64,000 nucleotides of DNA from Azolla caroliniana (lineage: Eukaryota > Plantae > Polypodiophyta), in NCBI GenBank assembly GCA_043228905.1, contig JBHGNT010000100.1, positions 1 through 64,000 on the forward strand. The letters run 5' to 3'. Under the pieces are notes generated by a model, which made no database searches, was not told the origin of the DNA, and was given only the letters and a program-made list of their open reading frames with translations. The translations under genes and the position numbers were made by a program. Shown one piece after another: positions 41,101 through 64,000 of the stretch. Within the stretch, counting starts at the first letter, position 1, and every line of letters begins with the position of its first letter.

Positions 41101-44100
41101 GAATATTTTAACACAGAAATCCAATATCACACGAGCCAGGTATGAACCTTTTAATTTACTCAAGGGCTCTTCTCAACTCCATCCTCAAGTTTGCTAATAT
41201 TATTCATGTGTCTCGACCTGAGTTTCAAAATCTTGATTTTTTAATTCTATATCATAGCTAGCGTTGCTAGCTTCGATTCGCATATTTGAACACAGAAATC
41301 CGATATCACACGAGCCAGGTATGAACATTTTAATTTACTCAAGGGCTCTTCTCAACTCCCTCCTCAAGATTGCTAATTTCTTCATATCTCCTGACCTGAG
41401 TTTCAAAATCTTGATTTTTGAATTCTATATCATAGCTAGCGTTGCTAGCTTCGATTCGCATATTTGAACACAGAAATCCGATATCACACGAACCAGGTAT
41501 GAACATTTTAATTTACTCAAGGGCTCCTCTCAACTCCATCCTCAAGTTTGCTAATATTATTCATGTGTCTCGACCTGAGTTTCAAAATCTTGATTTTTGA
41601 ATTCTATATCATAGCTAGCGTTGCTAGCTTCGATTCGAATATTTGAACACAGAAATCCGATATCACACGAGCCAGGTATGAACATTTTAATTTACTCAAG
41701 GGCTCTTCTCAACTCCCTCCTTAAGTTTGCTAATTTCTTCATATCTCCTGACCTGAGTTTCAAAATCTTGATTTTTGAATTCTATATCATAGCTAGCGTT
41801 GCAAGCTTCGATTTGTATATTTGAACACAGAAATCCGATATCACACGAGCTAGGTATGAACATTTTAATTTACTCAAGGGCTCTTCTCAATTCCCTCCTC
41901 ATCTTTGCTAATTTCGTCATGTCTCTCGACCTGAGTTTCAAAATCTTGATTTTTGAATTCTATATCATAGCTCGCGTTGCTAGATTCGATTCGAATATTT
42001 GAACATAAAAATCCGATATCACACGTGCCAGGTATGAACATTTTAATTTACTTAAGGGCTCTTCTCAACTCCCTCCCCAAGTTTGCTAATTTCTTCATAT
42101 CTCCTGACCTGAGTTTCGAAATCTTGATTTTTGAATTCTATAGCATAGCTCGCGTTGCTAGCTTCCATTCGAATATTTTAACACAGAAATCCAATATCAC
42201 ACGAGCCAGGTATGAACCTTTTAATTTACTCAAGGGCTCTTCTCAACTCCCTCCATAAGTTTGCTAATTTCTTCATATCTCCTGACCTGAGTTTCAAAAT
42301 CTTGATTTTTGAATTCTATATCATAGCTCGCGTTGCTAGCTTCGATTCGAATATTTCAACTTCAAAATCCAATATCACACGAGCCAGGTATGAACATTTT
42401 AATTTACTCAAGGGCTCTTCTCAACTCCCTCCTCAAGTTTGCTAATTTCTTCATATCTCCTGACCTGAGTTTCAAAATATTGATTTTCGAATTCTATATC
42501 ATAGCTTGCGTTGCTACCTTCGAATCGCATATTTGAACACAGAAATCCGATATCACACGAGCCAGGTATGAACATTTTAATTTACTCAAGGGCTCTTCTC
42601 AACTCCCTCCTCAAGTTTGCTAATTTCGTCATGTCTCTCGACCTGAGTTTCAAAATCTTGATTTTTGAATTCTATATCATACCTAGCGTTGCTAGCTTCG
42701 ATTCGCATATTTGAACACAGAAATCCGATATCACACGAGCCAGGTATGAACATTTTAATTTACTCAAGGGCTCTTCTCAACTCCCTCCTTAAGTTTGCTA
42801 ATTTCTTCATATCTCCTGACCTGAGTTTCAAAATCTTGATTTTTGAATTCTATATCATAGCTAGCGTTGCTAGCTTCGATTTGTATATTTGAACACAGAA
42901 ATCCGATATCACACGAGCTAGGTATGAACATTTTAATTTACTCAAGGGCTCTTCTCAATTCCCTCCTCATCTTTGCTAATTTCGTCATGTCTCTCGACCT
43001 GAGTTTCAAAATCTTGATTTTTGAATTCTATATCATAGCTCGCGTTGCTAGATTCGATTCGAATATTTGAACATAAAAATCCGATATCACACGTGCCAGG
43101 TATGAACATTTTAATTTACTTAAGGGCTCTTCTCAACTCCCTCCCCAGGTTTGCTAATTTCTTCATATCTCCTGACCTGAGTTTCAAAATCTTGATTTTT
43201 GAATTCTATAGCATAGCTCGCGTTGCTAGCTTCCATTCGAATATTTTAACACAGAAATCCAATATCACACGAGCCAGGTATGAACCTTTTAATTTACTCA
43301 AGGGCTCTTCTCAACTCCCTCCATAAGTTTGTTAATTTCTTCATATCTCCTGACCTGAGTTTCAAAATCTTGATTTTTGAATTCTATATCATAGCTCGCG
43401 TTGCTAGCTTCGATTCGAATATTTCAACTTCAAAATCCAATATCACACGAGCCAGGTATGAACATTTTAATTTACTCAAGGGCTCCTCTCAACTCCATCC
43501 TCAAGTTTGCTAATATTATTCATGTGTCTCGACCTGAGTTTCAAAATCTTGATTTTTGAATTCTATATCATAGCTAGCGTTGCTAGCTTCGATTCGAATA
43601 TTTGAACACAGAAATCCGATATCACACGAGCCAGGTATGAACATTTTAATTTACTCAAGGGCTCTTCTCAACTCCCTCCTCAAGTTTGCTGATTTCTTCA
43701 TATCTCCTGACCTGAGTTTCAAAATCTTGATTTTTGAATTCTATATCATAGCTCGAGTTGCTAGGTTCGATGCGAATATTTGAACTTCAAAATCCGATAT
43801 CACACGAGCCAGGTATGAACATTTTAATTTACTCTAGGGCTCCTCTCAACTCCATCCTCAAGTTTGCTAATATTATTCATGTGTCTCGACCTGAGTTTCA
43901 AAATCTTGATTTTCTAATTCTATATCATAGCTAGCGTTGCTAGCTTCGATTCGCATATTTGAACACAGAAATCCGATATCACACGAGCCAGGTATGAACA
44001 TTTTAATTTACTCAAGGGCTCTTCTCAACTCCCTCCTCAAGATTGCTAATTTCTTCATATCTCCTGACCTGAGTTTCAAAATCTTGATTTTCTAATTCTA

Positions 44101-47100
44101 TATCATACCTAGCGTTGCTACCTTCGATTCGCATATTTGAACACAGAAATCTGATATCACACGAGCCAGGTATGAACATTTTAATTTACTCAAGGGCTCT
44201 TCTCAACTCCCTCCTCAAGTTTGCTAATTTCGTCATGTCTCTCGACCTGAGTTTCAAAATCTTGATTTTTGAATTCTATATGATACCTAGCGTTGCTAGG
44301 TTCGATTCGCATATTTGAACACAGAAATCCGATATCACACGAGCCAGGTATGAACATTTTAATTTACTCAAGGGCTCTTCTCAACTCCCTCCTCAAGTTT
44401 GCTAATTTCTTCATATCTCCTGACCTGAGTTTCAAAATATTGATTTTCGAATTCTATATCATAGCTTGCGTTGCTACCTTCGAATCGCATATTTGAACAC
44501 AGAAATCCGATATCACACGAGCCAGGTATGAACATTTTAATTTACTCAAGGGCTCTTCTCAACTCCATCTTCATCTTTGCTAATTTCGTCATGTCTCTCG
44601 ACCTGAGTTTCAAAATCTTGATTTTTGAATTCTATATCATACCTAGCGTTGCTAGCTTCGATTCGCATATTTGAACACAGAAATCCGATATCACACGAGC
44701 CAGGTATGAACATTTTAATTTACTCAAGGGCTCTTCTCAACTCCCTCCTTAAGTTTGCTAATTTCTTCATATCTCCTGACCTGAGTTTCAAAATCTTGAA
44801 TGTTGAATTCTATATCATACCTAGCGTTGCTACCTTCGATTCGCATATTTGAACACAGAAATCTGATATCACACGAGCCAGGTATGAACATTTTAATTTA
44901 CTCAAGGGCTCTTCTCAACTCCCTCCTCAAGTATTCTAATTTCTTCATATCTCCTGACCTGAGTTTCAAAATCTTGATTTTTGAATTCTATATCATAGCT
45001 CGAGTTGCTAGCTTCGATTCGCATATTTGAACTTCAAAATCGGATATCAGACGAGCCAAGTATGAACATTTTAATTTACTCAAGCGCTCTTCTCAACTCC
45101 ATCCTCATCTTTGCTAATTTCCTCATGTCTCTCGACCTGAGTTTCAAAATCTTGATTTTTTAATTCTATATCATAGCTAGCGTTGCTAGCTTCGATTCGC
45201 ATATTTGAACACAGAAATCCGATATCACACGAGCCAGGTATGAACATTTTAATTTACTCAAGGGCTCTTCTCAACTCCCTCCTCAAGATTGCTAATTTCT
45301 TCATATCTCCTGACCTGAGTTTCAAAATCTTGATTTTTGAATTCTATATCATAGCTAGCGTTGCTAGCTTCGATTCGCATATTTGAACACAGAAATCCGA
45401 TATCACACGAACCAGGTATGAACATTTTAATTTACTCAAGGGCTCCTCTCAACTCCATCCTCAAGTTTGCTAATATTATTCATGTGTCTCGACCTGAGTT
45501 TCAAAATCTTGATTTTTGAATTCTATATCATAGCTAGCGTTGCTAGCTTCGATTCGAATATTTGAACACAGAAATCCGATATCACACGAGCCAGGTATGA
45601 ACATTTTAATTTACTCAAGGGCTCTTCTCAACTCCCTCCTTAAGTTTGCTAATTTCTTCATATCTCCTGACCTGAGTTTCAAAATCTTGATTTTTGAATT
45701 CTATATCATAGCTAGCGTTGCAAGCTTCGATTTGTATATTTGAACACAGAAATCCGATATCACACGAGCTAGGTATGAACATTTTAATTTACTCAAGGGC
45801 TCTTCTCAATTCCCTCCTCATCTTTGCTAATTTCGTCATGTCTCTCGACCTGAGTTTCAAAATCTTGATTTTTTAATTCTATATCATAGCTCGCGTTGCT
45901 AGATTCGATTCGAATATTTGAACATAAAAATCCGATATCACACGTGCCAGGTATGAACATTTTAATTTACTTAAGGGCTCTTCTCAACTCCCTCCCCAAG
46001 TTTGCTAATTTCTTCATATCTCCTGACCTGAGTTTCGAAATCTTGATTTTTGAATTCTATAGCATAGCTCGCGTTGCTAGCTTCCATTCGAATATTTTAA
46101 CACAGAAATCCAATATCACACGAGCCAGGTATGAACCTTTTAATTTACTCAAGGGCTCTTCTCAACTCCCTCCATAAGTTTGCTAATTTCTTCATATCTC
46201 CTGACCTGAGTTTCAAAATCTTGATTTTTGAATTCTATATCATAGCTCGCGTTGCTAGCTTCGATTCGAATATTTCAACTTCAAAATCCAATATCACACG
46301 AGCCAGGTATGAACATTTTAATTTACTCAAGGGCTCTTCTCAACTCCCTCCTTAAGTTTGCTAATTTCTTCATATCTCCTGACCTGAGTTTCAAAATATT
46401 GATTTTCGAATTCTATATCATAGCTTGCGTTGCTACCTTCGAATCGCATATTTGAACACAGAAATCCGATATCACACGAGCCAGGTATGAACATTTTAAT
46501 TTACTCAAGGGCTCTTCACAACTCCCTCCTCAAGTTTGCTAATTTCGTCATGTCTCTCGACCTGAGTTTCAAAATCTTGATTTTTGAATTCTATATCATA
46601 CCTAGCGTTGCTAGCTTCGATTCGCATATTTGAACACAGAAATCCGATATCACACGAGCCAGGTATGAACATTTTAATTTACTCAAGGGCTCTTCTCAAC
46701 TCCCTCCTTAAGTTTGCTAATTTCTTCATATCTCCTGACCTGAGTTTCAAAATCTTGATTTTTGAATTCTATATCATAGCTAGCGTTGCTAGCTTCGATT
46801 TGTATATTTGAACACAGAAATCCGATATCACACGAGCTAGGTATGAACATTTTAATTTACTCAAGGGCTCTTCTCAATTCCCTCCTCATCTTTGCTAATT
46901 TCGTCATGTCTCTCGACCTGAGTTTCAAAATCTTGATTTTTGAATTCTATATCATAGCTCGCGTTGCTAGATTCGATTCGAATATTTGAACATAAAAATC
47001 CGATATCACACGTGCCAGGTATGAACATTTTAATTTACTTAAGGGCTCTTCTCAACTCCCTCCCCAGGTTTGCTAATTTCTTCATATCTCCTGACCTGAG

Positions 47101-50100
47101 TTTCAAAATCTTGATTTTTGAATTCTATAGCATAGCTCGCGTTGCTAGCTTCCATTCGAATATTTTAACACAGAAATCCAATATCACACGAGCCAGGTAT
47201 GAACCTTTTAATTTACTCAAGGGCTCTTCTCAACTCCCTCCATAAGTTTGTTAATTTCTTCATATCTCCTGACCTGAGTTTCAAAATCTTGATTTTTGAA
47301 TTCTATATCATAGCTCGCGTTGCTAGCTTCGATTCGAATATTTCAACTTCAAAATCCAATATCACACGAGCCAGGTATGAACATTTTAATTTACTCAAGG
47401 GCTCCTCTCAACTCCATCCTCAAGTTTGCTAATATTATTCATGTGTCTCGACCTGAGTTTCAAAATCTTGATTTTTGAATTCTATATCATAGCTAGCGTT
47501 GCTAGCTTCGATTCGAATATTTGAACACAGAAATCCGATATCACACGAGCCAGGTATGAACATTTTAATTTACTCAAGGGCTCTTCTCAACTCCCTCCTC
47601 AAGTTTGCTGATTTCTTCATATCTCCTGACCTGAGTTTCAAAATCTTGATTTTTGAATTCTATATCATAGCTCGAGTTGCTAGGTTCGATGCGAATATTT
47701 GAACTTCAAAATCCGATATCACACGAGCCAGGTATGAACATTTTAATTTACTCTAGGGCTCCTCTCAACTCCATCCTCAAGTTTGCTAATATTATTCATG
47801 TGTCTCGACCTGAGTTTCAAAATCTTGATTTTGTAATTCTATATCATAGCTAGCGTTGCTAGCTTCGATTCGCATATTTGAACACAGAAATCCGATATCA
47901 CACGAGCCAGGTATGAACATTTTAATTTACTCAAGGGCTCTTCTCAACTCCCTCCTCAAGATTGCTAATTTCTTCATATCTCCTGACCTGAGTTTCAAAA
48001 TCTTGATTTTCTAATTCTATATCATACCTAGCGTTGCTACCTTCGATTCGCATATTTGAACACAGAAATCTGATATCACACGAGCCAGGTATGAACATTT
48101 TAATTTACTCAAGGGCTCTTCTCAACTCCCTCCTCAAGTTTGCTAATTTCGTCATGTCTCTCGACCTGAGTTTCAAAATCTTGATTTTTGAATTCTATAT
48201 GATACCTAGCGTTGCTAGGTTCGATTCGCATATTTGAACACAGAAATCCGATATCACACGAGCCAGGTATGAACATTTTAATTTACTCAAGGGCTCTTCT
48301 CAACTCCCTCCTCAAGTTTGCTAATTTCTTCATATCTCCTGACCTGAGTTTCAAAATATTGATTTTCGAATTCTATATCATAGCTTGCGTTGCTACCTTC
48401 GAATCGCATATTTGAACACAGAAATCCGATATCACACGAGCCAGGTATGAACATTTTAATTTACTCAAGGGCTCTTCTCAACTCCATCTTCATCTTTGCT
48501 AATTTCGTCATGTCTCTCGACCTGAGTTTCAAAATCTTGATTTTTGAATTCTATATCATACCTAGCGTTGCTAGCTTCGATTCGCATATTTGAACACAGA
48601 AATCCGATATCACACGAGCCAGGTATGAACATTTTAATTTACTCAAGGGCTCTTCTCAACTCCCTCCTTAAGTTTGCTAATTTCTTCATATCTCCTGACC
48701 TGAGTTTCAAAATCTTGATTTTTGAATTCTATATCATAGCTAGCGTTGCTAGCTTCGATTTGTATATTTGAACACAGAAATCCGATATCACACGAGCTAG
48801 GTATGAACATTTTAATTTACTCAAGGGCTCTTCTCAATTCCCTCCTCATCTTTGCTAATTTCGTCATGTCTCTCGACCTGAGTTTCAAAATCTTGATTTT
48901 TGAATTCTATATCATAGCTCGCGTTGCTAGATTCGATTCGAATATTTGAACATAAAAATCCGATATCACACGTGCCAGGTATGAACATTTTAATTTACTT
49001 AAGGGCTCTTCTCAACTCCCTCCCCAAGTTTGCTAATTTCTTCATATCTCCTGACCTGAGTTTCAAAATCTTGATTTTTGAATTCTATAGCATAGCTCGC
49101 GTTGCTAGCTTCCATTCGAATATTTTAACACAGAAATCCAATATCACACGAGCCAGGTATGAACCTTTTAATTTACTCAAGGGCTCTTCTCAACTCCCTC
49201 CATAAGTTTGCTAATTTCTTCATATCTCCTGACCTGAGTTTCAAAATCTTGATTTTTGAATTCTATATCATAGCTCGCGTTGCTAGCTTCGATTCGAATA
49301 TTTCAACTTCAAAATCCAATATCACACGAGCCAGGTATGAACATTTTAATTTACTCAAGGGCTCCTCTCAACTCCATCCTCAAGTTTGCTAATATTATTC
49401 ATGTGTCTCGACCTGAGTTTCAAAATCTTGATTTTTGATTTCTATATCATAGCTAGCGTTGCTAGCTTCGATTCGAATATTTGAACACAGAAATCCGATA
49501 TCACACGAGCCAGGTATGAACATTTTAATTTACTCAAGGGCTCTTCTCAACTCCCTCCTCAAATTTGCTAATTTCTTCATATCTCCTGACCTGAGTTTCA
49601 AAATCTTGATTTTTGAATTCTATATCATAGCTCGAGTTGCTAGGTTCGATGCGAATATTTGAACTTCAAAATCCGATATCACACGAGCCAGGTATGAACA
49701 TTTTAATTTACTCTAGGGCTCTTCTCAACTCCCTCCTCAAATTTGCTAATTTCTTCATATCTCCTGACCTGAGTTTCAAAATCTTGATTTTCTAATTCTA
49801 TATCATACCTAGCGTTGCTACCTTCGATTCGCATATTTGAACACAGAAATCTGATATCACACGAGCCAGGTATGAACATTTTAATTTACTCAAGGGCTCA
49901 TCTTAACTCCCTCCTCAAGTTTGCTAATTTCGTCATGTCTCTCGACCTGAGTTTCAAAATCTTGATTTTTGAATTCTATATCATAGCTAGCGTTGCTAGC
50001 TTCGATTCGCATATTTGAACACAGAAATCCGATATCACACGAGCCAGGTATGAACATTTTAATTTACTCAAGGGCTCTTCTCAACTCCCTCCTCAAGTTT

Positions 50101-51061
50101 GCTAATTTCTTCATATCTCCTGACCTGAGTTTCAAAATCTTGATTTTTGAATTCTATATCATAGCTCGAGTTGCTAGCTTCGATTCGAATATTTGAACTT
50201 CAAAATCCGATATCACACGAGCCAGGTATGAACATTTTAATTTACTCAAGGGCTCCTCTCAACTCCATCCTCAAGTTTGCTAATATTATTCATGTGTCTC
50301 GACCTGAGTTTCAAAATCTTGATTTTTGAATTCTATATCATAGCTAGCGTTGCTAGCTTCGATTCGAATATTTGAACACAGAAATCCGATATCACACGAG
50401 CCAGGTATGAACATTTTAATATACTCAAGGGCTCTTCTCAACTCCCTCCTCAAGTTTGCTAATTTCTTCATATCTCCTGACCTGAGTTTCAAAATCTTGA
50501 ATGTTGAATTCTATATCATACCTAGCGTTGCTACCTTCGATTCGCATATTTGAACACAGAAATCTGATATCACACGAGCCAGGTATGAACATTTTAATTT
50601 ACTCAAGGGCTCTTCTCAACTCCCTCCTCAAGTTTTCTAATTTCTTCATATCTCCTGACCTGAGTTTCAAAATCTTGATTTTTGAATTCTATATCATAGC
50701 TCGAGTTGCTAGCTTCGATTCGCATATTTGAACTTCAAAATCCGATATCAGACGAGCCAAGTATGAACATTTTAATTTACTCAAGCGCTCTTCTCAACTC
50801 CATCCTCATCTTTGCTAATTTCCTCATGTCTCTCGACCTGAGTTTCAAAATCGTGATTTTTGAATTCTATATCATAGCTAGCGTTGCTAGCTTCGATTCG
50901 CATATTTGAACACAGAAATCCGATATCACACGAGCCAGGTATGAACATTTTAATTTACTCAAGGGCTCTTCTCAACTCCCTCCTCAAGTTTGCTAATTTC
51001 TTCATATCTCCTGACCTGAGTTTCAAAATCTTGATTTTTGAATTCTATATCATAGCTTGCG
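17151..51061. repeat. Satellite subfamily A, domain A2 (includes 179-bp variant monomers; 6-, 7-, 11-, 19- and 22-monomer duplications)
   Basis: New marker monomers appear: GATTTGTATATTTG (first ~17574), GAACATAAAAATCCGATATCACACGTGCC (first ~17765) and a 179-bp monomer with GCTAATATTATTCATGTGTCTC (first ~18205). The left boundary is approximate. Confidence 0.8.
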
Positions 51062-52330
51062 CGATTCGCATGTTTGAACACAAAAATCCGATATCACACG
51101 AGCCAGGTATGAACATTTTAATTTACTCAAGGGCTTCTCTCAACTCACTCCTCAAATTTGGTAATTTCGTCATGTCTCGCGACCTGAGTTTCAAAATCTT
51201 GATTTTTTAACTCCATATCATAGGTAGCATTGTTAGCTTCGATTCGCATGTTTGAACACAAAAATCCGATATCACACGAGCCAGGTATGAACATTTTAAT
51301 TTAACTCATAGCTCTTCTTAACTCACTCCTCAAATTTGGTAATTTCGTCATGTCTCTCGACCTGAGTTTGAAAATCTTGATTTTTTAATTCCATATCATA
51401 GCTAGCGTTGTTAGCTTCGATTCGCATGTTTGAACACAAAATTCGGATATCACACGAGCCAGGTATGAACATTTTAATTTACTCAAGGGCTTCTCTCAAC
51501 TCACTCCTCAAATTTGGTAATCTCATCATGTCTCTCGACCTGAGTTTGAAAATCTTGATATTTTAATTCCATATCATAGCTAGCGTTGTTAGCTTCTATT
51601 CGCATGTTTGAACACAAAAATCCGATATCACACGAGCCAGGTATGAACATTTTAATTTAACTCATAGCTCTTCTTAACTCACTCCTCAAATTTAGTAATT
51701 TCGTCATGTCTCTCGACCTGAGTTTGAAAATCTTGATTTTTTAATTCTATATCATAGCTAGCGTTGTTAGCTTCGATTCGCATGTTTGAACACAAAAATC
51801 CGATATCACACGAGCCAGGTATGAACATTTTAATTTAACTCATAGCTCTTCTTAACTCACTCCTCAAATTTGGTATTTTCGTCATGTCTCTCGACCTGAG
51901 TTTCAAAATCTTGATTTTCTAATTCTATATCACAGCTAGTGTTGTTAGCTTCGATTCGCTTGTTTGAACACAAAAATCCGATATCACACGAGCCAGGTAT
52001 GAACATTTTAATTTACTCAAGGGCTTCTCTGAACTCACTCCTCAAATTTAGTAATCTCATCATGTCTTCCGACCTGAGTTTCAAAATCTTGATTTTTTAA
52101 TTCCATATCATAGCTAGCGTTGTTAGCTTCGATTCGCATGTTTGAACACAAAAATCCGATATCACACGAGCCAGGTATGAACATTTTAATTTAACTCATA
52201 GCTCTTCTTAACTCACTCCTCAAATTTGGTAATTTCGTCATGCCTCTCGACCTGAGTTTGAAAATCTTGATTTTCTAATTCTATATCACAGCTAGTGTTG
52301 TTAGCTTCGATTCGCTTGTTTGAACACAAA
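51062..52330. repeat. Satellite subfamily B island (~7 monomers)
   Basis: Carries the B diagnostics GTTGTTAGC, GCATGTTTGAACACAAAAATCC, CACTCCTCAAATTTGGTAAT and GGGCTTCTCTC or TAACTCATAGCTCTTCTT. It starts at a 10-bp deletion (51061/51062) and reverts to A within the invariant block at 52330-52381. Confidence 0.92.
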
Positions 52331-53900
52331 AATCCGATATCACACGAGCCAGGTATGAACATTTTAATTTACTCAAGGGCTCTTCTCAACTCCCTCCTCA
52401 AATTTGCTAATTTCTTCATATCTCCTGACCTGAGTTTCAAAATCTTGATTTTTGAATTCTATATCATAGCTCGAGTTGCTAGGTTCGATGCGAATATTTG
52501 AACTTCAAAATCCGATATCACACGAGCCAGGTATGAACATTTTAATTTACTCTAGGGCTCTTCTCAACTCCCTCCTCAAATTTGCTAATTTCTTCATATC
52601 TCCTGACCTGAGTTTCAAAATCTTGATTTTCTAATTCTATATCATACCTAGCGTTGCTACCTTCGATTCGCATATTTGAACACAGAAATCTGATATCACA
52701 CGAGCCAGGTATGAACATTTTAATTTACTCAAGGGCTCATCTTAACTCCCTCCTCAAGTTTGCTAATTTCGTCATGTCTCTCGACCTGAGTTTCAAAATC
52801 TTGATTTTTGAATTCTATATCATAGCTAGCGTTGCTAGCTTCGATTCGCATATTTGAACACAGAAATCCGATATCACACGAGCCAGGTATGAACATTTTA
52901 ATTTACTCAAGGGCTCTTCTCAACTCCCTCCTCAAGTTTGCTAATTTCTTCATATTTCCTGACCTGAGTTTCAAAATCTTGATTTTTGAATTCTATATCA
53001 TAGCTCGAGTTGCTAGCTTCGATTCGAATATTTGAACTTCAAAATCCGATATCACACGAGCCAGGTATGAACATTTTAATTTACTCAAGGGCTCCTCTCA
53101 ACTCCATCCTCAAGTTTGCTAATATTATTCATGTGTCTCGACCTGAGTTTCAAAATCTTGATTTTTGAATTCTATATCATAGCTAGCGTTGCTAGCTTCG
53201 ATTCGAATATTTGAACACAGAAATCCGATATCACACGAGCCAGGTATGAACATTTTAATATACTCAAGGGCTCTTCTCAACTCCCTCCTCAAGTTTGCTA
53301 ATTTCTTCATATCTCCTGACCTGAGTTTCAAAATCTTGAATGTTGAATTCTATATCATACCTAGCGTTGCTACCTTCGATTCGCATATTTGAACACAGAA
53401 ATCTGATATCACACGAGCCAGGTATGAACATTTTAATTTACTCAAGGGCTCTTCTCAACTCCCTCCTCAAGTTTTCTAATTTCTTCATATCTCCTGACCT
53501 GAGTTTCAAAATCTTGATTTTTGAATTCTATATCATAGCTCGAGTTGCTAGCTTCGATTCGCATATTTGAACTTCAAAATCCGATATCAGACGAGCCAAG
53601 TATGAACATTTTAATTTACTCAAGCGCTCTTCTCAACTCCATCCTCATCTTTGCTAATTTCCTCATGTCTCTCGACCTGAGTTTCAAAATCGTGATTTTT
53701 GAATTCTATATCATAGCTAGCGTTGCTAGCTTCGATTCGCATATTTGAACACAGAAATCCGATATCACACGAGCCAGGTATGAACATTTTAATTTACTCA
53801 AGGGCTCTTCTCAACTCCCTCCTCAAGTTTGCTAATTTCTTCATATCTCCTGACCTGAGTTTCAAAATCTTGATTTTTGAATTCTATATCATAGCTTGCG
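52331..53900. repeat. Satellite subfamily A block, duplicate of ~49492-51061
   Basis: Private variants recur at a 2839-bp offset (GGGCTCATCTT at ~49894 and ~52733; AAAATCGTGAT at ~50847 and ~53686; ORFs 49815/52654 and 50884/53723). Confidence 0.92.
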
Positions 53901-56900
53901 CGATTCGCATGTTTGAACACAAAAATCCGATATCACACGAGCCAGGTATGAACATTTTAATTTACTCAAGGGCTTCTCTCAACTCACTCCTCAAATTTGG
54001 TAATTTCGTCATGTCTCGCGACCTGAGTTTCAAAATCTTGATTTTTTAACTCCATATCATAGGTAGCATTGTTAGCTTCGATTCGCATGTTTGAACACAA
54101 AAATCCGATATCACACGAGCCAGGTATGAACATTTTAATTTAACTCATAGCTCTTCTTAACTCACTCCTCAAATTTGGTAATTTCGTCATGTCTCTCGAC
54201 CTGAGTTTGAAAATCTTGATTTTTTAATTCCATATCATAGCTAGCGTTGTTAGCTTCGATTCGCATGTTTGAACACAAAATTCGGATATCACACGAGCCA
54301 GGTATGAACATTTTAATTTACTCAAGGGCTTCTCTCAACTCACTCCTCAAATTTGGTAATCTCATCATGTCTCTCGACCTGAGTTTGAAAATCTTGATAT
54401 TTTAATTCCATATCATAGCTAGCGTTGTTAGCTTCGATTCGCATGTTTGAACACAAAAATCCGATATCACACGAGCCAGGTATGAACATTTTAATTTAAC
54501 TCATAGCTCTTCTTAACTCACTCCTCAAATTTAGTAATTTCGTCATGTCTCTCGACCTGAGTTTGAAAATCTTGATTTTTTAATTCTATATCATAGCTAG
54601 CGTTGTTAGCTTCGATTCGCATGTTTGAACACAAAAATCCGATATCACACGAGCCAGGTATGAACATTTTAATTTAACTCATAGCTCTTCTTAACTCACT
54701 CCTCAAATTTAGTAATTTCGTCATGTCTCTCGACCTGAGTTTGAAAATCTTGATTTTTTAATTCTATATCATAGCTAGCGTTGTTAGCTTCGATTCGCAT
54801 GTTTGAACACAAAAATCCGATATCACACGAGCCAGGTATGAACATTTTAATTTAACTCATAGCTCTTCTTAACTCACTCCTCAAATTTGGTATTTTCGTC
54901 ATGTCTCTCGACCTGAGTTTCAAAATCTTGATTTTCTAATTCTAAATCACAGCTAGTGTTGTTAGCTTCGATTCGCTTGTTTGAACACAAAAATCCGATA
55001 TCACACGAGCCAGGTATGAACATTTTAATTTACTCAAGGGCTTCTCTGAACTCACTCCTCAAATTTAGTAATCTCATCATGTCTCTCGACCTGAGTTTGA
55101 AAATCTTGATTTTTTAATTCCATATCATAGCTAGCGTTGTTAGCTTCGATTCGCATGTTTGAACACAAAATTCGGATATCACACGAGCCAGGTATGAACA
55201 TTTTAATTTACTCAAGGGCTTCTCTCAACTCACTCCTCAAATTTGGTAATCTCATCATGTCTCTCGACCTGAGTTTGAAAATCTTGATATTTTAATTCCA
55301 TATCATAGCTAGCGTTGTTAGCTTCGATTCGCATGTTTGAACACAAAAATCCGATATCACACGAGCCAGGTATGAACATTTTAATTTAACTCATAGCTCT
55401 TCTTAACTCACTCCTCAAATTTAGTAATTTCGTCATGTCTCTCGACCTGAGTTTGAAAATCTTGATTTTTTAATTCTATATCATAGCTAGCGTTGTTAGC
55501 TTCGATTCGCATGTTTGAACACAAAAATCCGATATCACACGAGCCAGGTATGAACATTTTAATTTAACTCATAGCTCTTCTTAACTCACTCCTCAAATTT
55601 GGTATTTTCGTCATGTCTCTCGACCTGAGTTTCAAAATCTTGATTTTCTAATTCTAAATCACAGCTAGTGTTGTTAGCTTCGATTCGCTTGTTTGAACAC
55701 AAAAATCCGATATCACACGAGCCAGGTATGAACATTTTAATTTACTCAAGGGCTTCTCTGAACTCACTCCTCAAATTTAGTAATCTCATCATGTCTTTCG
55801 ACCTGAGTTTCAAAATCTTGATTTTTTAATTCCATATCATAGCTAGCGTTGTTAGCTTCGATTCGCATGTTTGAACACAAAAATCCGATATCACACGAGC
55901 CAGGTATGAACATTTTAATTTAACTCATAGCTCTTCTTAACTCACTCCTCAAATTTGGTAATTTCGTCATGCCTCTCGACCTGAGTTTGAAAATCTTGAT
56001 TTTTTAATTCCATATCATAGCTAGCGTTGTTAGCTTCGATTCGCATGTTTGAACACAAAAATCCGATATCACACGAGCCAGGTATGAACATTTTAATTTA
56101 CTCAAGGGCTTCTCTCAACTCACTCCTCAAATTTGGTAATTTCGTCATATCTCGCGACCTGAGTTTCAAAATCTTGATTTTTTAACTCCATATCATAGCT
56201 AGCATTGTTAGCTTCGATTCGCATGTTTGAACACAAAAATCCGATATCACACGAGCCAGGTATGAACATTTTAATTTAACTCATAGCTCTTCTTAACTCA
56301 CTCCTCAAATTTGGTAATCTCATCATGTCTCTCGACCTGAGTTTAAAAATCTTGATTTTTTAATTCCATATCATAGCTAGCGTTTTTAGCTTCGATTCGC
56401 ATGTTTGAACACAAAAATCCGATATCACACGAGCCAGGTATGAACATTTTAATTTACTCAAGGGCTTCTCTCAACTCACTCCTCAAATTTGGTAATCTCA
56501 TCATGTCTCTCGACTTGAGTTTGAAAATCTTGATTTTTTAATTCCATATCATAGCTAGCGTTGTTAGCTTCGATTCGCATGTTTGAACACAACAATCCGA
56601 TCTCACACGAGCCAGGTATGAACATTTTAATTTACTCAAGGGCTTCTCTGAAATCACTCCTCAAATTTGGTAATCTCATCATGTCTTTCGACCTGAGTTT
56701 CAAAATCTTGATTTTTTAATTCCATATCATAGCTAGCGTTGTTAGCTTCGATTCGCATGTTTGAACACAAAAATCCGATATCACACGAGCCAGGTATGAA
56801 CATTTTAATTTAACTCATAGCTCTTCTTAACTCACTCCACAAATTTGGTAATTTCGTCATGTCTCTCGACCTGAGTTTGAAAATCTTGATTTTTTAATTC

Positions 56901-59900
56901 CATATCATAGCTAGCGTTGTTAGCTTCGATTCGCATGTTTGAACACAAAATTCGGATATCACACGAGCCAGGTATGAACATTTTAATTTACTCAAGGGCT
57001 TCTCTCAACTCACTCCTCAAATTTGGTAATCTCATCATGACTCTCGACCTGAGTTTGAAAATCTTGATTTTTTAATTCCATATCATAGCTAGCGTTGTTA
57101 GCTTCGATTCGCATGTTTGAACACAAAAATCCGATATCACACGAGCCAGGTATGAACATTTTAATTTAACTCATAGCTCTTCTTAACTCACTCCTCAAAT
57201 TTGGTAATTTCGTCATGTCTCTCGACCTGAGTTTGAAAATCTTGATTTTTTAATTCCATATCATAGCTAGCGTTGTTAGCTTCGATTCGCATGTTTGAAC
57301 ACAAAATTCGGATATCACACGAGCCAGGTATGAACATTTTAATTTACTCAAGGGCTTCTCTCAACTCACTCCTCAAATTTGGTAATTTCGTCATATCTCG
57401 CGACCTGAGTTTCAAAATCTTGATTTTCTAATTCTATATCACAGCTAGTGTTGTTAGCTTCGATTCGCTTGTTTGAACACAAAAATCCGATATCACACGA
57501 GCCAGGTATGAACATTTTAATTTACTCAAGGGCTTCTCTCAACTCACTCCTCAAATTTGGTAATCTCATCATGTCTCTCAACTTGAGTTTGAAAATCTTG
57601 ATTTTTTAATTCCATATCATAGCTAGCGTTGTTAGCTTCGATTCGCATGTTTGAACACAAAAATCCGATATCACACGAGCCAGGTATGAACATTTTAATT
57701 TAACTCATAGCTCTTCTTAACTCACTCCTCAAATTTGGTATTTTCGTCATGTCCCTCGACCTGAGTTTCAAAATCTTGATTTTCTAATTCTATATCATCT
57801 CTAGCGTTGTTAGCTTCGATTCGCATGTTTGAACACAAAAATCCGATATCACACGAGCCAGGTATGTACATTTTAATTTACTCAAGGGCTTCTCTCAACT
57901 CACTCCTCAAATTTGGTAATTTCGTCATATCTCGCGACCTGAGTTTCAAAATCTTGATTTTCTAATTCTATATCACAGCTAGTGTTGTTAGCTTCGATTC
58001 GCTTGTTTGAACACAAAAATCCGATATCACACGAGCCAGGTATGAACATTTTAATTTACTCAAGGGCTTCTCTCAACTCACTCCTCAAATTTGGTAATCT
58101 CATCATGTCTCTCGACTTGAGTTTGAAAATCTTGATTTTTTAATTCCATATCATAGCTAGCGTTGTTAGCTTCGATTCGCATGTTTGAACACAAAAATCC
58201 GATATCACACGAGCCAGGTATGAACATTTTAATTTACTCAAGGGCTTCTCTGAACTCACTCCTCAAATTTGGTAATCTCATCATGTCTTTCGACCTGAGT
58301 TTCAAAATCTTGATTTTTTAATTCCATATCATAGCTAGCGTTGTTAGCTTCGATTCGCATGTTTGAACACAAAAATCCGATATCACACGAGCCAGGTATG
58401 AACATTTTAATTTAACTCATAGCTCTTCTTAACTCACTCCTCAAATTTGGTATTTTCGTCATGTCTCTCGACCTGAGTTTCAAAATCTTGATTTTCTAAT
58501 TCTATATCACAGCTAGTGTTGTTAGCTTCGATTCGCTTGTTTGAACACAAAAATCCGATATCACACGAGCCAGGTATGAACATTTTAATTTACTCAAGGG
58601 CTTCTCTCAACTCACTCCTCAAATTTGGTAATCTCATCATGTCTCTCGACCTGAGTTTGAAAATCTTGATTTTTTAATTCCATATCATAGCTAGCGTTGT
58701 TAGCTTCGATTCGCATGTTTGAACACAAAAATCCGATATCACACGAGCCAGGTATGACCATTTTAATTTAACTCATAGCTCTTCTTAACTCACTCCTCAA
58801 ATTTGGTAATTTCGTCATGTCTCTCGACCTGAGTTTGAAAATCTTGATTTTTTAGTTCTATATGATAGCTAGCGTTGTTAGCTTCGATTCGCATGTTTGA
58901 ACACAAAATTCGGATATCACACGAGCCAGGTATGAACATTTTAATTTACTCAAGGGCTTCTCTGAACTCACTCCTCAAATTTGGTAATCTCATCATGTCT
59001 CTCGACCTGAGTTTGAAAATCGTGATTTTTTAACTCCATATCATAGCTAGCGTTGTTAGCTTCGATTCGCATGTTTGAACACAAAAATCCGATATCACAA
59101 GAGCCAGGTATGAACATTCTAATTTACTCAAGGGCTTCTCTCAACTCACTCCTCAAATTTGGTAATTTCGTCATGTCTCGCGACCTGAGTTTGAAAATCT
59201 TGATTTTTTAATTCCATATCATAGCTAGCGTTGTTAGCTTCGATTCGCATGTTTGAACACAAAAATCCGATATCACACGAGCCAGGTATGAACATTTTAA
59301 TTTACTCAAGGGCTTCTCTGAACTCACTCCTCAAATTTGGTAATCTCATCATGTCTTTCGACCTGAGTTTCAAAATCTTGATTTTTTAATTCCATATCAT
59401 AGCTAGCGTTGTTAGCTTCGATTCGCATGTTTGAACACAAAAATCCGATATCACACGAGCCAGGTATGAACATTTTAATTTAACTCATAGCTCTTCTTAA
59501 CTCACTCCTCAAATTTAGTAATTTCGTCATGTCTCTCGACCTGAGTTTGAAAATCTTGATTTTTTAATTCCATATCATAGCTAGCGTTGTTAGCTTCGAT
59601 TCGCATGTTTGAACACAAAATTCGGATATCACACGAGCCAGGTATGAACATTTTAATTTACTCAAGGGCTTCTCTCAACTCACTCCTCAAATTTGGTAAT
59701 CTCATCATGTCTCTCGACCTGAGTTTGAAAATCTTGATTTTTTAATTCCATATCATAGCTAGCGTTGTTAGCTTCGATTCGCATGTTTGAACACAAAAAT
59801 CCGATATCACACGAGCCAGGTATGAACATTTTAATTTAACTCATAGCTCTTCTTAACTCACTCCTCAAATTTAGTAATTTCGTCATGTCTCTCGACCTGA

Positions 59901-62900
59901 GTTTGAAAATCTTGATTTTTTAATTCTATATCATAGCTAGCGTTGTTAGCTTCGATTCGCATGTTTGAACACAAAAATCCGATATCACACGAGCCAGGTA
60001 TGAACATTTTAATTTACTCAAGGGCTTCTCTGAACTCACTCCTCAAATTTGGTAATCTCATCATGTCTTTCGACCTGAGTTTCAAAATCTTGATTTTTTA
60101 ATTCCATATCATAGCTAGCGTTGTTAGCTTCGATTCGCATGTTTGAACACAAAAATCCGATATCACACGAGCCAGGTATGAACATTTTAATTTACTCAAG
60201 GGCTTCTCTCAACTCACTCCTCAAATTTGGTAATTTCGTCATATCTCGCGACCTGAGTTTCAAAATCTTGATTTTCTAATTCTATATCACAGCTAGTGTT
60301 GTTAGCTTCGATTCGGTTGTTTGAACACAAAAATCCGATATCACACGAGCCAGGTATGAACATTTTAATTTACTCAAGGGCTTCTCTCAACTCACTCCTC
60401 AAATTTGGTAATCTCATCATGTCTCTCGACTTGAGTTTGAAAATCTTGATTTTTTAATTCCATATCATAGCTAGCGTTGTTAGCTTCGATTCGCATGTTT
60501 GAACACAAAAATCCGATATCACACGAGCCAGGTATGAACATTTTAATTTACTCAAGGGCTTCTCTGAACTCACTCCTCAAATTTGGTAATCTCATCATGT
60601 CTTTCGACCTGAGTTTCAAAATCTTGATTTTTTAATTCCATATCATAGCTAGCGTTGTTAGCTTCGATTCGCATGTTTGAACACAAAAATCCGATATCAC
60701 ACGAGCCAGGTATGAACATTTTAATTTACTCAAGGGCTTCTCTCAACTCACTCCTCAAATTTGGTAATTTCGTCATATCTCGCGACCTGAGTTTCAAAAT
60801 CTTGATTTTCTAATTCTATATCACAGCTAGTGTTGTTAGCTTCGATTCGCTTGTTTGAACACAAAAATCCGATATCACACGAGCCAGGTATGAACATTTT
60901 AATTTACTCAAGGGCTTCTCTCAACTCACTCCTCAAATTTGGTAATCTCATCATGTCTCTCGACTTGAGTTTGAAAATCTTGATTTTTTAATTCCATATC
61001 ATAGCTAGCGTTGTTAGCTTCGATTCGCATGTTTGAACACAAAAATCCGATATCACACGAGCCAGGTATGAACATTTTAATTTACTCAAGGGCTTCTCTG
61101 AACTCACTCCTCAAATTTGGTAATCTCATCATGTCTTTCGACCTGAGTTTCAAAATCTTGATTTTTTAACTCCATATCATAGCTAGCATTGTTAGCTTCG
61201 ATTCGCATGTTTGAACACGAAAATCCGATATCACACGAGCCAGGTATGAACATTTTAATTTAACTCATAGCTCTTCTTAACTCACTCCTCAAATTTGGTA
61301 TTTTCGTCATGTCTCTCGACCTGAGTTTCAAAATCTTGATTTTCTAATTCTATATCACAGCTAGTGTTGTTAGCTTCGATTCGCTTGTTTGAACACAAAA
61401 ATCCGATATCACACGAGCCAGGTATGAACATTTTAATTTACTCAAGGGCTTCTCTCAACTCACTCCTCAAATTTGGTAATCTCATCATGTCTCTCGACCT
61501 GAGTTTGAAAATCTTGATTTTTTAATTCCATATCATAGCTAGCGTTGTTAGCTTCGATTCGCATGTTTGAACACAAAAATCCGATATCACACGAGCCAGG
61601 TATGAACATTTTAATTTAACTCATAGCTCTTCTTAACTCACTCCTCAAATTTAGTAATTTCGTCATGTCTCTCGACCTGAGTTTGAAAATCTTGATTTTT
61701 TAATTCCATATCATAGCTAGCGTTGTTAGCTTCGATTCGCATGTTTGAACACAAAATTCGGATATCACACGAGCCAGGTATGAACATTTTAATTTACTCA
61801 AGGGCTTCTCTCAACTCACTCCTCAAATTTGGTAATCTCATCATGTCTCTCGACCTGAGTTTGAAAATCTTGATTTTTTAATTCCATATCATAGCTAGCG
61901 TTGTTAGCTTCGATTCGCATGTTTGAACACAAAAATCCGATATCACACGAGCCAGGTATGAACATTTTAATTTAACTCATAGCTCTTCTTAACTCACTCC
62001 TCAAATTTAGTAATTTCGTCATGTCTCTCGACCTGAGTTTGAAAATCTTGATTTTTTAATTCTATATCATAGCTAGCGTTGTTAGCTTCGATTCGCATGT
62101 TTGAACACAAAAATCCGATATCACACGAGCCAGGTATGAACATTTTAATTTACTCAAGGGCTTCTCTGAACTCACTCCTCAAATTTGGTAATCTCATCAT
62201 GTCTTTCGACCTGAGTTTCAAAATCTTGATTTTTTAATTCCATATCATAGCTAGCGTTGTTAGCTTCGATTCGCATGTTTGAACACAAAAATCCGATATC
62301 ACACGAGCCAGGTATGAACATTTTAATTTACTCAAGGGCTTCTCTCAACTCACTCCTCAAATTTGGTAATTTCGTCATATCTCGCGACCTGAGTTTCAAA
62401 ATCTTGATTTTTTAACTCCATATCATAGCTAGCATTGTTAGCTTCGATTCGCATGTTTGAACACGAAAATCCGATATCACACGAGCCAGGTATGAACATT
62501 TTAATTTAACTCATAGCTCTTCTTAACTCACTCCTCAAATTTGGTATTTTCGTCATGTCTCTCGACCTGAGTTTCAAAATCTTGATTTTCTAATTCTATA
62601 TCACAGCTAGTGTTGTTAGCTTCGATTCGCTTGTTTGAACACAAAAATCCGATATCACACGAGCCAGGTATGAACATTTTAATTAACTCAAGGGCTTCTC
62701 TCAACTCACTCCTCAAATTTGGTAATCTCATCATGTCTCTCGACCTGAGTTTCAAAATCTTGATTTTTTAATTCCATATCATAGCTAGCGTTGTTAGCTT
62801 CGATTCGCATGTTTGAACACAAAAATCCGATATCACACGAGCCAGGTATGAACATTTTAATTTACTCAAGGGCTTCTCTGAACTCACTCCTCAAATTTGG

Positions 62901-63386
62901 TAATCTCATCATGTATTTCGACCTGAGTTTCAAAATCTTGATTTTTTAATTCCATATCATAGCTAGCGTTGTTAGCTTCGATTCGCATGTTTGAACACAA
63001 AAATCCGATATCACACGAGCCAGGTATGAACATTTTAATTTACTCAAGGGCTTCTCTCAACTCACTCCTCAAATTTGGTAATTTCGTCATGTCTCGCGAC
63101 CTGAGTTTCAAAATCTTGATTTTTTAACTCCATATCATAGCTAGCATTGTTAGCTTCGATTCGCATGTTTGAACACAAAAATCCGATATCACACGAGCCA
63201 AGTATGAACATTTTAATTTACTCAAGGGCTTCTCTCAACTCACTCCTCAATTTTGGTAATTTCGTCATGTCATATCATAGCTAGCATTGTTAGCTTCGAT
63301 TCGCATGTTTGAACACAAAAATCCGATATCACACGAGCCAGGTATGAACATTTTAATTTAACTCATAGCTCTTCTTAACTCACTCC
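53901..63386. repeat. Satellite subfamily B domain (~53 monomers)
   Basis: B diagnostics throughout, with two interspersed monomer types (TACTCAAGGGCTTCTCTC and TAACTCATAGCTCTTCTT). B lacks the GAATTC (EcoRI) site common in A. Confidence 0.95.
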
Positions 63387-63457
63387 TGTCATAACTAGAC
63401 TCGAACCCATAACCTTTTGTTACACGGGTCGAGACTTTACCATTAGGTTATGAATTG
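63387..63457 (-). other. Degenerate tRNA-like unit with Pol III A box and B box at the U3 end of the LTR
   Basis: The minus strand reads CAATTCA-TAACCTAATGGTAAAGT-CTCGACCCGTGTAACAAA-AGGTT-ATGGGTTCGAGTCTAGT-TATGACA. An A-box-like TAACCTAATGG lies at 63450-63440 and a B box GGTTCGAGTCT at 63407-63397, with tRNA-canonical spacing. Acceptor and anticodon stems do not pair, so it is not a functional tRNA. Confidence 0.6.
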
Positions 63458-63509
63458 TAATTTGAAGGATATTATTTTCATTTAGGTTTTATTGGGAAAT
63501 TGATGTATA

Positions 63510-63557
63510 TTCCAGATTTCTCTGGAACATTCTAGAAACTTCAGGAGTATTCCTGAA
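63510..63557. promoter_or_regulatory. Heat-shock element array (alternating nGAAn/nTTCn, 10 in-phase units)
   Basis: TTC-ca-GAT-tt-CTC-tg-GAA-ca-TTC-ta-GAA-ac-TTC-ag-GAG-ta-TTC-ct-GAA: 7 of 10 units are perfect, including four consecutive perfect units at 63525-63542. This matches the established HSF binding consensus. Confidence 0.78.
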
Positions 63558-63562
63558 GACAC

Positions 63563-63570
63563 TGTAAAAG
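63563..63570 (+). promoter_or_regulatory. TATA-like box of the LTR promoter
   Basis: TGTAAAAG (one mismatch to TATAAAAG) lies just downstream of the HSE array and ~30 bp upstream of the transcription start predicted independently from the self-primer (63596). Confidence 0.55.
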
Positions 63571-63595
63571 GAGGCGCAAGGCATTAGTTCGAACC

Positions 63596-63607
63596 AAATC
63601 GGTTCAA
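63596..63607 (+). other. Predicted self-primer (5' end of the transcript, start of R)
   Basis: AAATCGGTTCAA is the exact reverse complement of TTGAACCGATTT at 63854-63865. Confidence 0.75.
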
Positions 63608-63676
63608 CGCCAGTCTTAAGCCTTCTAACTACTGTTGTATATCTTCCGTCATATAATACATATATCTTTCGCATCA

Positions 63677-63680
<4 letters not shown>

Positions 63681-63718
<38 letters not shown>
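63681..63718. repeat. (TC)19 microsatellite within the LTR
   Basis: Perfect 38-bp TC dinucleotide run. Confidence 0.98.
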
Positions 63719-63722
<4 letters not shown>

Positions 63723-63752
63723 ATTCCTTCTCTCAAAGTTCGACACCTCTCA

Positions 63753-63819
63753 TAGTACTAATCGTTCTCTGTCTTAGTACTATTCCCCAACAATAGTACT
63801 AATCCTTCTTTTAGTACTA
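63753..63819. repeat. Four copies of the palindrome TAGTACTA in the U5 part of the LTR
   Basis: TAGTACTA at 63753, 63775, 63794 and 63812 (spacing 22, 19, 18 bp), each followed by a short pyrimidine-rich stretch. Confidence 0.9.
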
Positions 63820-63853
63820 ATTCCTTCTCTGCCTTAATAGAGTTCCTGACAGT

Positions 63854-63865
63854 TTGAACCGATTT
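63854..63865 (+). other. Primer binding site, self-priming type
   Basis: Begins 2 nt after the LTR end (TGACA-GT-TTGAACCGATTT). It lacks the TGG start expected for pairing with a tRNA CCA end and is complementary to 63596-63607. Confidence 0.75.
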
Positions 63866-63939: not shown

Positions 63940-64000
63940 ATGGCCACCGTTAGCGCTGAAGAGTATCAATCCGTTTTCTCGGAATTTCAATGCTTGAAAG
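63940..64000 (+). CDS. Probable gag/gag-pol N-terminus, truncated by the window edge (MATVSAEEYQSVFSEFQCLK...)
   Basis: First ATG after the PBS and leader, context CCCATGG, with 20 open codons to the window end. The product is inferred from position only. Confidence 0.5.
   Translation, partial: MATVSAEEYQSVFSEFQCLK

Follow-up and report, generated by a model that had tools for sequence, protein, structure and literature searches.

The Element and its Insertion Site

The window, by which we mean the whole stretch of 64,000 nucleotides analyzed here, contains a 178-bp tandem satellite array followed by the 5' part of an LTR retrotransposon (Table 1); the array picks up again 3' of the element and reaches the end of the contig. 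The host is a green plant, with 19 chlorophyll a/b-binding matches in its 523-Mb assembly, and the reported range of the Tcn1 clade suggests that it is a non-seed plant. The element is an intact, young, self-priming, Tcn1-like chromovirus of 5.76 kb sitting within this satellite. The 5' LTR differs at 5 of 465 bases from the 3' LTR (G000:C100:68686-69150), which is preceded by a polypurine tract. The first-pass annotation had placed the outer end of the LTR at 63387, and this was confirmed by 30 family copies together with the target site duplication (TSD). The gag gene is separate, and pol is open over 1203 codons with the Ty3/gypsy order PR-RT-RH-IN, followed by a C-terminal chromodomain (Pfam Chromo, E 3.8e-14) that keeps the Y-W-Y residues of the aromatic cage, as this is defined in passages of PMC3350952; an SH3 domain is also present. 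At the locus L031 (2082-2109) pol, in the -1 frame, overlaps the end of gag, which suggests a ribosomal frameshift.

Table 1. Positions of the features discussed in the text, as numbered in the window.
Feature	Position	Strand	Remarks
178-bp tandem satellite array	1..63386	.	About 355 copies within the window
First T-run facing a hypothetical outward Pol III transcript	63317..63321	-	Satellite sequence; T4/T5 run at +137 (63321)
TSD, left copy (ACTCC, 5 bp)	63382..63386	+	Right copy beyond the 3' LTR, outside the window
5' LTR, 465 bp	63387..63851	+	TGTCA...TGACA
Putative antisense tRNA-derived unit, outer end of U3	63387..63457	-	No cloverleaf; both strands form a long hairpin in this family
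B box, tRNA positions 52-62	63397..63407	-	GGTTCGAGTC at 63407-63398; G53 at 63406
Variable-loop motif AGGT(T/C), tRNA positions 44-48	63411..63415	-	AGGTT here
A-box-like element, tRNA positions 8-20	63439..63450	-	TAACCTAATGGTAAAG; T8 at 63450
AT-rich stretch (78%) upstream of the unit	63458..63497	-	Putative TFIIIB seat
Pol II TATA-box position	63563..63570	+	TATAAAAG in the 3' LTR and relatives; TGTAAAAG in this 5' LTR
Self-primer, predicted first 12 nt of the transcript	63596..63607	+	33 nt 3' of the TATA box; complementary to the primer-binding site; predicted start site
Self-priming primer-binding site (PBS)	63854..63865	+	2 nt beyond the LTR; co-varies with the self-primer in relatives
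gag, start (389 aa)	63940..64000	+	Open pol frame continues outside the window

We found no tRNA-complementary PBS in the element; its PBS pairs instead with its own LTR, over the 12 nt of the predicted transcript start. The same complementarity, over 11-13 nt and with co-varying letters, was seen in 8 of 11 two-LTR loci, the other three having badly called LTR ends. A B-box-like word at 63601-63610 is part of this self-primer and is missing in the L116 family, and was discounted. The TATA box of the 5' LTR carries an A-to-G change at 63564, without counterpart in the 3' LTR or in relatives; since this single change destroys the box, the copy in the window may be poorly transcribed.

Some rearranged copies and satellite variants were also seen. 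Shortened family copies are arranged in tandem with a spacing of 3190 bp at G000:C2:12246932-12277775, and the locus L030 has an LTR whose first 220 bases are duplicated. Satellite monomers shortened to 137-151 bp recur in the array (window positions 63131-63387, just left of the insertion; L031 7654-7932; L272; L273). Eight monomers of the window carry a variant word resembling a B box on the plus strand (18460, 18995, 43764, 44299, 47683, 48218, 49643 and 52482), at which the tRNA profile found nothing beyond the word itself.

A tRNA-like Unit at the Outer End of the LTR

The first-pass annotation described the outer end of the LTR as an antisense, tRNA-like Pol III promoter with decayed cloverleaf stems. 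The motif positions that it gave (A-box-like element, AGGTT, B box, T8 and G53) are all correct, and tRNA-derived A and B boxes are present in both LTRs; the 3' LTR has a fuller B box, GGTTCGAGTCC, owing to a change at the counterpart of 63397 that is private to it. To score the unit we used a structured and a sequence-only tRNA model, made from 14 tRNAs of the host genome (7 nuclear-type, of 6 isotypes, and 7 organelle-type). With the sequence-only model, positions 63390-63453 on the minus strand are the top match in all 64,000 bases (22.7 bits, E 4.7e-6; runner-up 3.9 bits). The combined A-box and B-box score is 30.6 bits (25.6-41.3 in the training tRNAs) and was reached by none of 200 dinucleotide shuffles, whose maximum was 10.0. 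The structured model, in contrast, gave 11.3 bits (E 0.048 over 6 kb), ARAGORN predicted no tRNA gene at the unit, and Rfam had no tRNA match there at E<=10. The stems are thus decayed as described. Because a strong sequence-only match goes with a weak structured one, we regard the unit as tRNA-like in sequence, not in fold. A tRNA derivation is supported by this likeness in letters, and the A/B-box head is also a feature of tRNA-derived SINEs.

Two more specific identities were considered and rejected. The unit is not a tRNA gene, given the ARAGORN, Rfam and structured-model results and the unpaired stems. Descent from tRNA-Arg(TCT) was dropped as well: this tRNA is the best match only for the family in the window and for L132 (0.67-0.69), and other families prefer other tRNAs.

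Two further details of the first description hold as letters and lose their significance among relatives. tRNA position 72 does coincide with the first LTR base, 63387; however, the distance between B box and LTR edge, 10 nt in this element, is 5-39 nt in relatives, so that the coincidence is meaningless. The closing arms TCATAAC/GTTATGA are present (63389-63395 and 63447-63453), but their register is not fixed and they are family-specific, other families having different closures or none.

Conservation of the Boxes among Related Elements

Relatives were gathered by protein similarity, independently of the motif, and comprised 70 loci of the genome (SH3-domain search) and 79 metagenome loci; viral contigs yielded a single distant locus, outside this set. 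Their LTR starts were read from the bases 3' of the polypurine tract; these were located automatically in 74 of 150 loci, some of them wrongly; the box scores were computed on 36 rows picked by eye (33 located automatically and three added by hand), over the first 130 LTR bases. Within the two clades of the element, 19 of the 20 LTR starts had a box score above all 200 shuffles, and the twentieth, which has a deletion, had p=0.035; these 20 carrier rows are not independent and represent about 11 families. On the minus strand, none of 16 outgroup LTR starts scored above all of its shuffles, the lowest p being 0.15. The spacing from A to B box is that of tRNAs, 42-44 nt, in 17 of the 20 carrier rows, and 50 nt in L116/L099.

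The alignment was anchored on GG and GTTCRA, so that those columns are conserved by construction. Positions 44-48, neither scored nor anchored, are nonetheless 93% conserved over the 11 families, with G46 and T47 in all 11, whereas the spacer (27-43) reaches 48% and the tail (63-67) 55%. In likeness between the two clades the unit stands above shuffles (0.57 against 0.46), and the adjacent 60 nt of U3 do not (0.50 against 0.49). The conserved AGGT(C) at 44-48 falls outside the canonical B box, and its conservation may reflect another constraint. Upstream, the 40 nt preceding the unit are 72-88% AT in 12 of 12 rows.

A profile search over 243 kb recovered the carriers L131, L096, L112, L092, L103 and L132 at E 3e-5 to 6e-4, and no outgroup sequence matched. 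The most diverged carriers scored weakly (L133 3.9, L116 5.4-5.6, L135 8.9 and L134 10.6 bits). The subfamily in the window is itself drifted in its A box, and its B box ends in T rather than C in 100 of the 100 copies listed. A start motif CAA, found in only 4 of 12 rows, all of one subclade, was discounted. We also noted, at one outgroup metagenome LTR start (L191 4147-4220, plus strand), a sense A-box-like word with a weak B-box-like word, scoring 23.5 bits for the boxes and 4 bits in the profile.

Box conservation relative to the flanks had been set beforehand as a test of the first-pass annotation, and its outcome is in favour: the boxes are kept among relatives while the flanks diverge. 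Since the box-side columns are retained at fixed spacing, with neither a common fold nor a single tRNA being tracked, selection would appear to act on a DNA-binding site. The unit is apparently a selected, lineage-wide site of Pol III type, putatively for TFIIIC.

Distribution and Copy Number

Carriers share 51-100% integrase identity, with sister families at 51-72%, and include five metagenome contigs (L132, L153, L133, L134 and L135). In an integrase tree of 39 of 41 rows, built without a named Tcn1 reference, they form two well-supported clades (100/99 and 100/99). What unites the two clades is no more than a weakly supported group (89/86, 24 rows), which also holds the non-carriers L139, L140 and L137. 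One gain with later losses is plausible. L137 and L140, nested in or beside the carrier clades, have no unit, which indicates that it is dispensable in some lineages.

A pattern for the first clade matched the genome 3018 times and a strict pattern for the second 130 times, with no matches for the reversed controls; the exact LTR start of the window occurs 558 times. Of 43 pattern matches viewed in context, 27 precede an intact LTR end of the TGACA type and most others a decayed end. Where gag or pol was nearby (33 matches), the unit was antisense in 30 cases and on the same strand in three, and across both carrier clades it is retained in one orientation at the LTR edge.

At L244 (~1330-1760), three tandem units of ~104 bp carry the A/B module of the second clade; beyond them the opposite strand bears another, dissimilar tRNA-like stretch, and there is no evident LTR end. 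L270 resembles this arrangement and also lacks an evident LTR end. These loci are possibly a derivative or a donor element.

Folding and Potential Transcripts

Across carriers we found no consensus fold in an unfitted alignment of 13 rows. Imposing the cloverleaf on the alignment paired 54% of cells (26% in the anticodon stem), a value equalled by 59 of 500 shuffles, and a candidate 5-bp rod helix gave no clear gain over shuffles (28-274 of 500). Most families of the host genome nevertheless form long hairpins on both strands, with z down to -5.5 and -6.3 in several, as opposed to four metagenome carriers, whose minus strand folded no better than shuffles. Separately, short terminal hairpins starting with TGTC occur at LTR starts of both carriers and non-carriers (L116, L135, L139 and L159).

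In 11 relatives, the first T4 downstream of the unit lies at +47 to +178, inside the LTR in four of them, or is absent within 900 nt. From the 3' LTR of the window's family it lies at +108, inside pol, and there is no T5 within ~1.2 kb. As the T4 varies in position or is missing, no RNA of fixed length is conserved, and short outward or antisense RNAs from such units would be by-products without a fixed end. A run search yielded contig-type runs with small word shares; four of them that were compared consisted mostly of relatives at 85-99%, a kind of data that carries neither strand nor start site.

A Candidate TFIIIC Site beside the Pol II Promoter

A and B boxes are recognized by TFIIIC. In our preferred reading, to which we give a probability of roughly 0.45, the antisense boxes at the LTR end are a TFIIIC site that would hold the adjacent Pol II promoter open wherever the element lands. 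An ancestral U3 would have captured a tRNA gene or the head of a tRNA-derived SINE, and selection would since have acted on the boxes as DNA; the lack of a common fold and of any single tracked tRNA points to DNA boxes rather than RNA. TFIIIC would bind the boxes, and TFIIIB could load onto the AT-rich stretch next to them, on the side facing the Pol II TATA box, which lies 110-200 bp inward of the unit. The outward-facing unit, the AT-rich 40 nt upstream of it and the inward TATA box together suggest a back-to-back Pol III/Pol II promoter, which may be poor in nucleosomes and resist silencing from the flank. Such an open promoter would suit an element whose chromodomain presumably targets heterochromatin, and the satellite would be merely one landing site. 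Precedents for single steps exist in passages of the literature: tDNA barriers depend on TFIIIC as well as Pol III and function regardless of orientation (PMC2040200), conservation of the boxes alone has been taken as evidence of a Pol III promoter in the Helenus elements (PMC10886601), and targeting to heterochromatin by the chromodomain has been proposed for RLG1 of moss (PMC7466625). A more tentative extension is that an autonomous, heterochromatin-seeking lineage of non-seed plants domesticated a tRNA promoter as a portable barrier, one TFIIIC site per LTR back to back with the Pol II promoter, so that the element could stay transcribable in silent chromatin while seeding thousands of extra-TFIIIC sites.

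The alternative that we consider unlikely, rather than remote, is that the unit works as RNA or single-stranded DNA, the U3 end pairing with the D and T arms of a host tRNA, or forming a hairpin beside the polypurine tract, and so aiding packaging or reverse transcription. In the passages available, the primer tRNA of Ty3 is bound at its T-psi-C and D arms by U3 of the genomic RNA (PMC5371799), and a tRNA-like sequence in U3-R of HIV-1 reportedly aids strand transfer; U3 is complementary to tRNA arms in the window's element as well. A role of this kind requires the fixed antisense orientation that we see, is helped by the otherwise unexplained AGGT(C), and fits the strong hairpins of the host-genome families; differences from the best-matching tRNA also lean slightly towards wobble-compatible ones (43 versus 32). 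However, the U3 of Ty3 and HIV-1 matches the primer of the element itself, while a self-priming element has no primer tRNA to guide, and here no single tRNA serves across families: the best match shifts from one to another, with exact matches of 7-13 nt confined to the boxes (six nuclear isotypes sampled). The missing consensus structure, a rod helix not clearly above shuffles and the shuffle-level minus strands of the four metagenome carriers also speak against it. If the unit is instead a true Pol III promoter, its selected product might be an antisense RNA from the 3' LTR, running over the chromodomain end of pol and curbing the expression or copy number of the element. Orientation and position agree with this, as does the first T4 within pol, yet that T4 is variable or absent in the 11 relatives, leaving no defined product that is kept, and we judge such self-control quite unlikely.

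Less likely still, the unit could be no more than a neutral remnant, left by a tRNA or SINE that inserted long ago and retained through common descent or because the LTR end is itself constrained. Its loss in L137 and L140, its weakness in some carriers and its falling below Rfam detection are what a relic would show; but under neutral decay the box columns should have eroded together with the spacer, the tail and the adjacent U3, which have dropped to the level of shuffles, and with the B box 5-39 nt from the LTR end, contact with integrase is unlikely to be the cause of conservation. The reading we find highly improbable is the one proposed in the first-pass annotation, an insulator or a promoter of chimeric RNA adapted to the satellite. 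It is true that the 5' unit faces the satellite and that a run of 137 nt to the first T5 exists, the length of the chimeric RNA that was envisaged. But there is no conserved terminator, and the T-run is ordinary satellite sequence, an accident of the insertion site. The satellite flanks one of 30 family LTR loci (about 20 insertions, these being the best-scoring copies and not a random sample) and no other fetched locus outside the contig of the window, while the LTR end is present 558 times. With the unit in thousands of dispersed LTRs, and the only satellite-borne element among the loci examined having a damaged 5' TATA box, a role tied to the satellite is not supported.

Relation to Known Elements

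The first-pass annotation knew of no description of such an arrangement. For autonomous elements our search agrees: in the mostly open-access literature covered, including passages from work on Tcn1 and RLG1 and from a preprint on TRIMs of beet, we found no description of an antisense tRNA promoter in their LTRs. That annotation overlooked the nearest parallel, however, which is found in the Helenus TRIMs (TRIMp3; Kojima 2024, PMC10886601), whose LTRs are tRNA-like. According to the passages searched, Helenus elements have tRNA-derived sequence in their LTRs, with A and B boxes kept and tRNA function lost, and share the 5-bp TSD with the element described here; a SINE insertion into an LTR has been proposed as their origin, and one family comes from the non-seed plant Selaginella. 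On the other hand, they are non-coding, 311-1263 bp long and tRNA-primed, unlike our 5.76-kb, self-primed element with open gag and pol and a Pol II TATA box. Transcription of the Helenus element itself is the proposed role of its Pol III promoter, whereas the unit here is antisense to gag and pol and points outward from the 5' LTR, and thus cannot produce genomic RNA. Since three Helenus features are lacking (a short non-coding body, a tRNA PBS and a promoter that transcribes the element), the element is not a member of that group. The same source remarks that "not a few" Repbase LTRs resemble parts of tRNAs, its analysis being confined to TRIMs under 1 kb, and in the passages searched we found no statement on the orientation of the tRNA unit in Helenus. 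While tRNA boxes in LTRs are therefore already known, an autonomous version in reversed orientation is apparently undescribed in the literature covered.

The Cassandra and Ajax TRIMs also have an internal Pol III promoter within the LTR (passages of PMC10886601); these are 5S-derived and non-autonomous, and Cassandra is transcribed from its promoter into the element, unlike the case here. The element resembles the Tcn1 chromoviruses of mosses and club-mosses (passages of PMC6317226, PMC2864245 and PMC3350952), with which it shares domain order, the aromatic-cage chromodomain, LTRs of ~450 bp and separate gag and pol genes. Members of that clade are likewise described, in PMC6317226, as having no tRNA PBS and as predicted to self-prime, the match being by description, without named references on the tree; the nearest database proteins carry no element name. 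The passages searched in these three papers make no mention of a tRNA-like unit in the LTR. Among chromatin boundaries, the tDNA barriers of S. pombe centromeres (PMC2040200, in part) also place A/B-box DNA at a chromatin border, the difference being that they are host tRNA genes with measured occupancy and ours are boxes within an autonomous LTR, known from sequence. B2 SINE boundaries (PMC8136502) are another instance of a mobile element carrying a boundary, in this case free SINEs, likewise with measured occupancy; the factor given in the abstract is CTCF and not TFIIIC.

A compact, conserved and mutable A/B-box unit at the LTR edge offers a direct test of how elements that land in heterochromatin remain transcribed. 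RLG1 has been reported, in passages of PMC7466625, to be expressed despite its location in heterochromatic islands. Should the units prove to be bound, the genome would offer no fewer than 3000 candidate TFIIIC sites at LTR ends, many more than its expected tRNA genes (Physcomitrella has 432 annotated; PMC3729371), which would bear on chromatin borders in plants. LTR promoters derived from small RNAs would then no longer be confined to tiny, non-autonomous TRIMs but occur, in reversed orientation, in full elements as well, and a route from autonomous LTRs to TRIMs with such promoters would be possible.

Host tRNA Genes

In the host genome, genes for tRNA-Arg(TCT), tRNA-Lys(TTT), tRNA-Thr(TGT) and tRNA-Ile(TAT) occur in long tandem clusters with many decayed copies (L213, L225, L226, L223, L227 and L049). 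At L215 (~2480-2640), a tRNA-Lys copy is apparently split by a palindromic insert of ~110 bp; the ends of this insert are similar to the beginning of the LTR in the L072 gypsy family.
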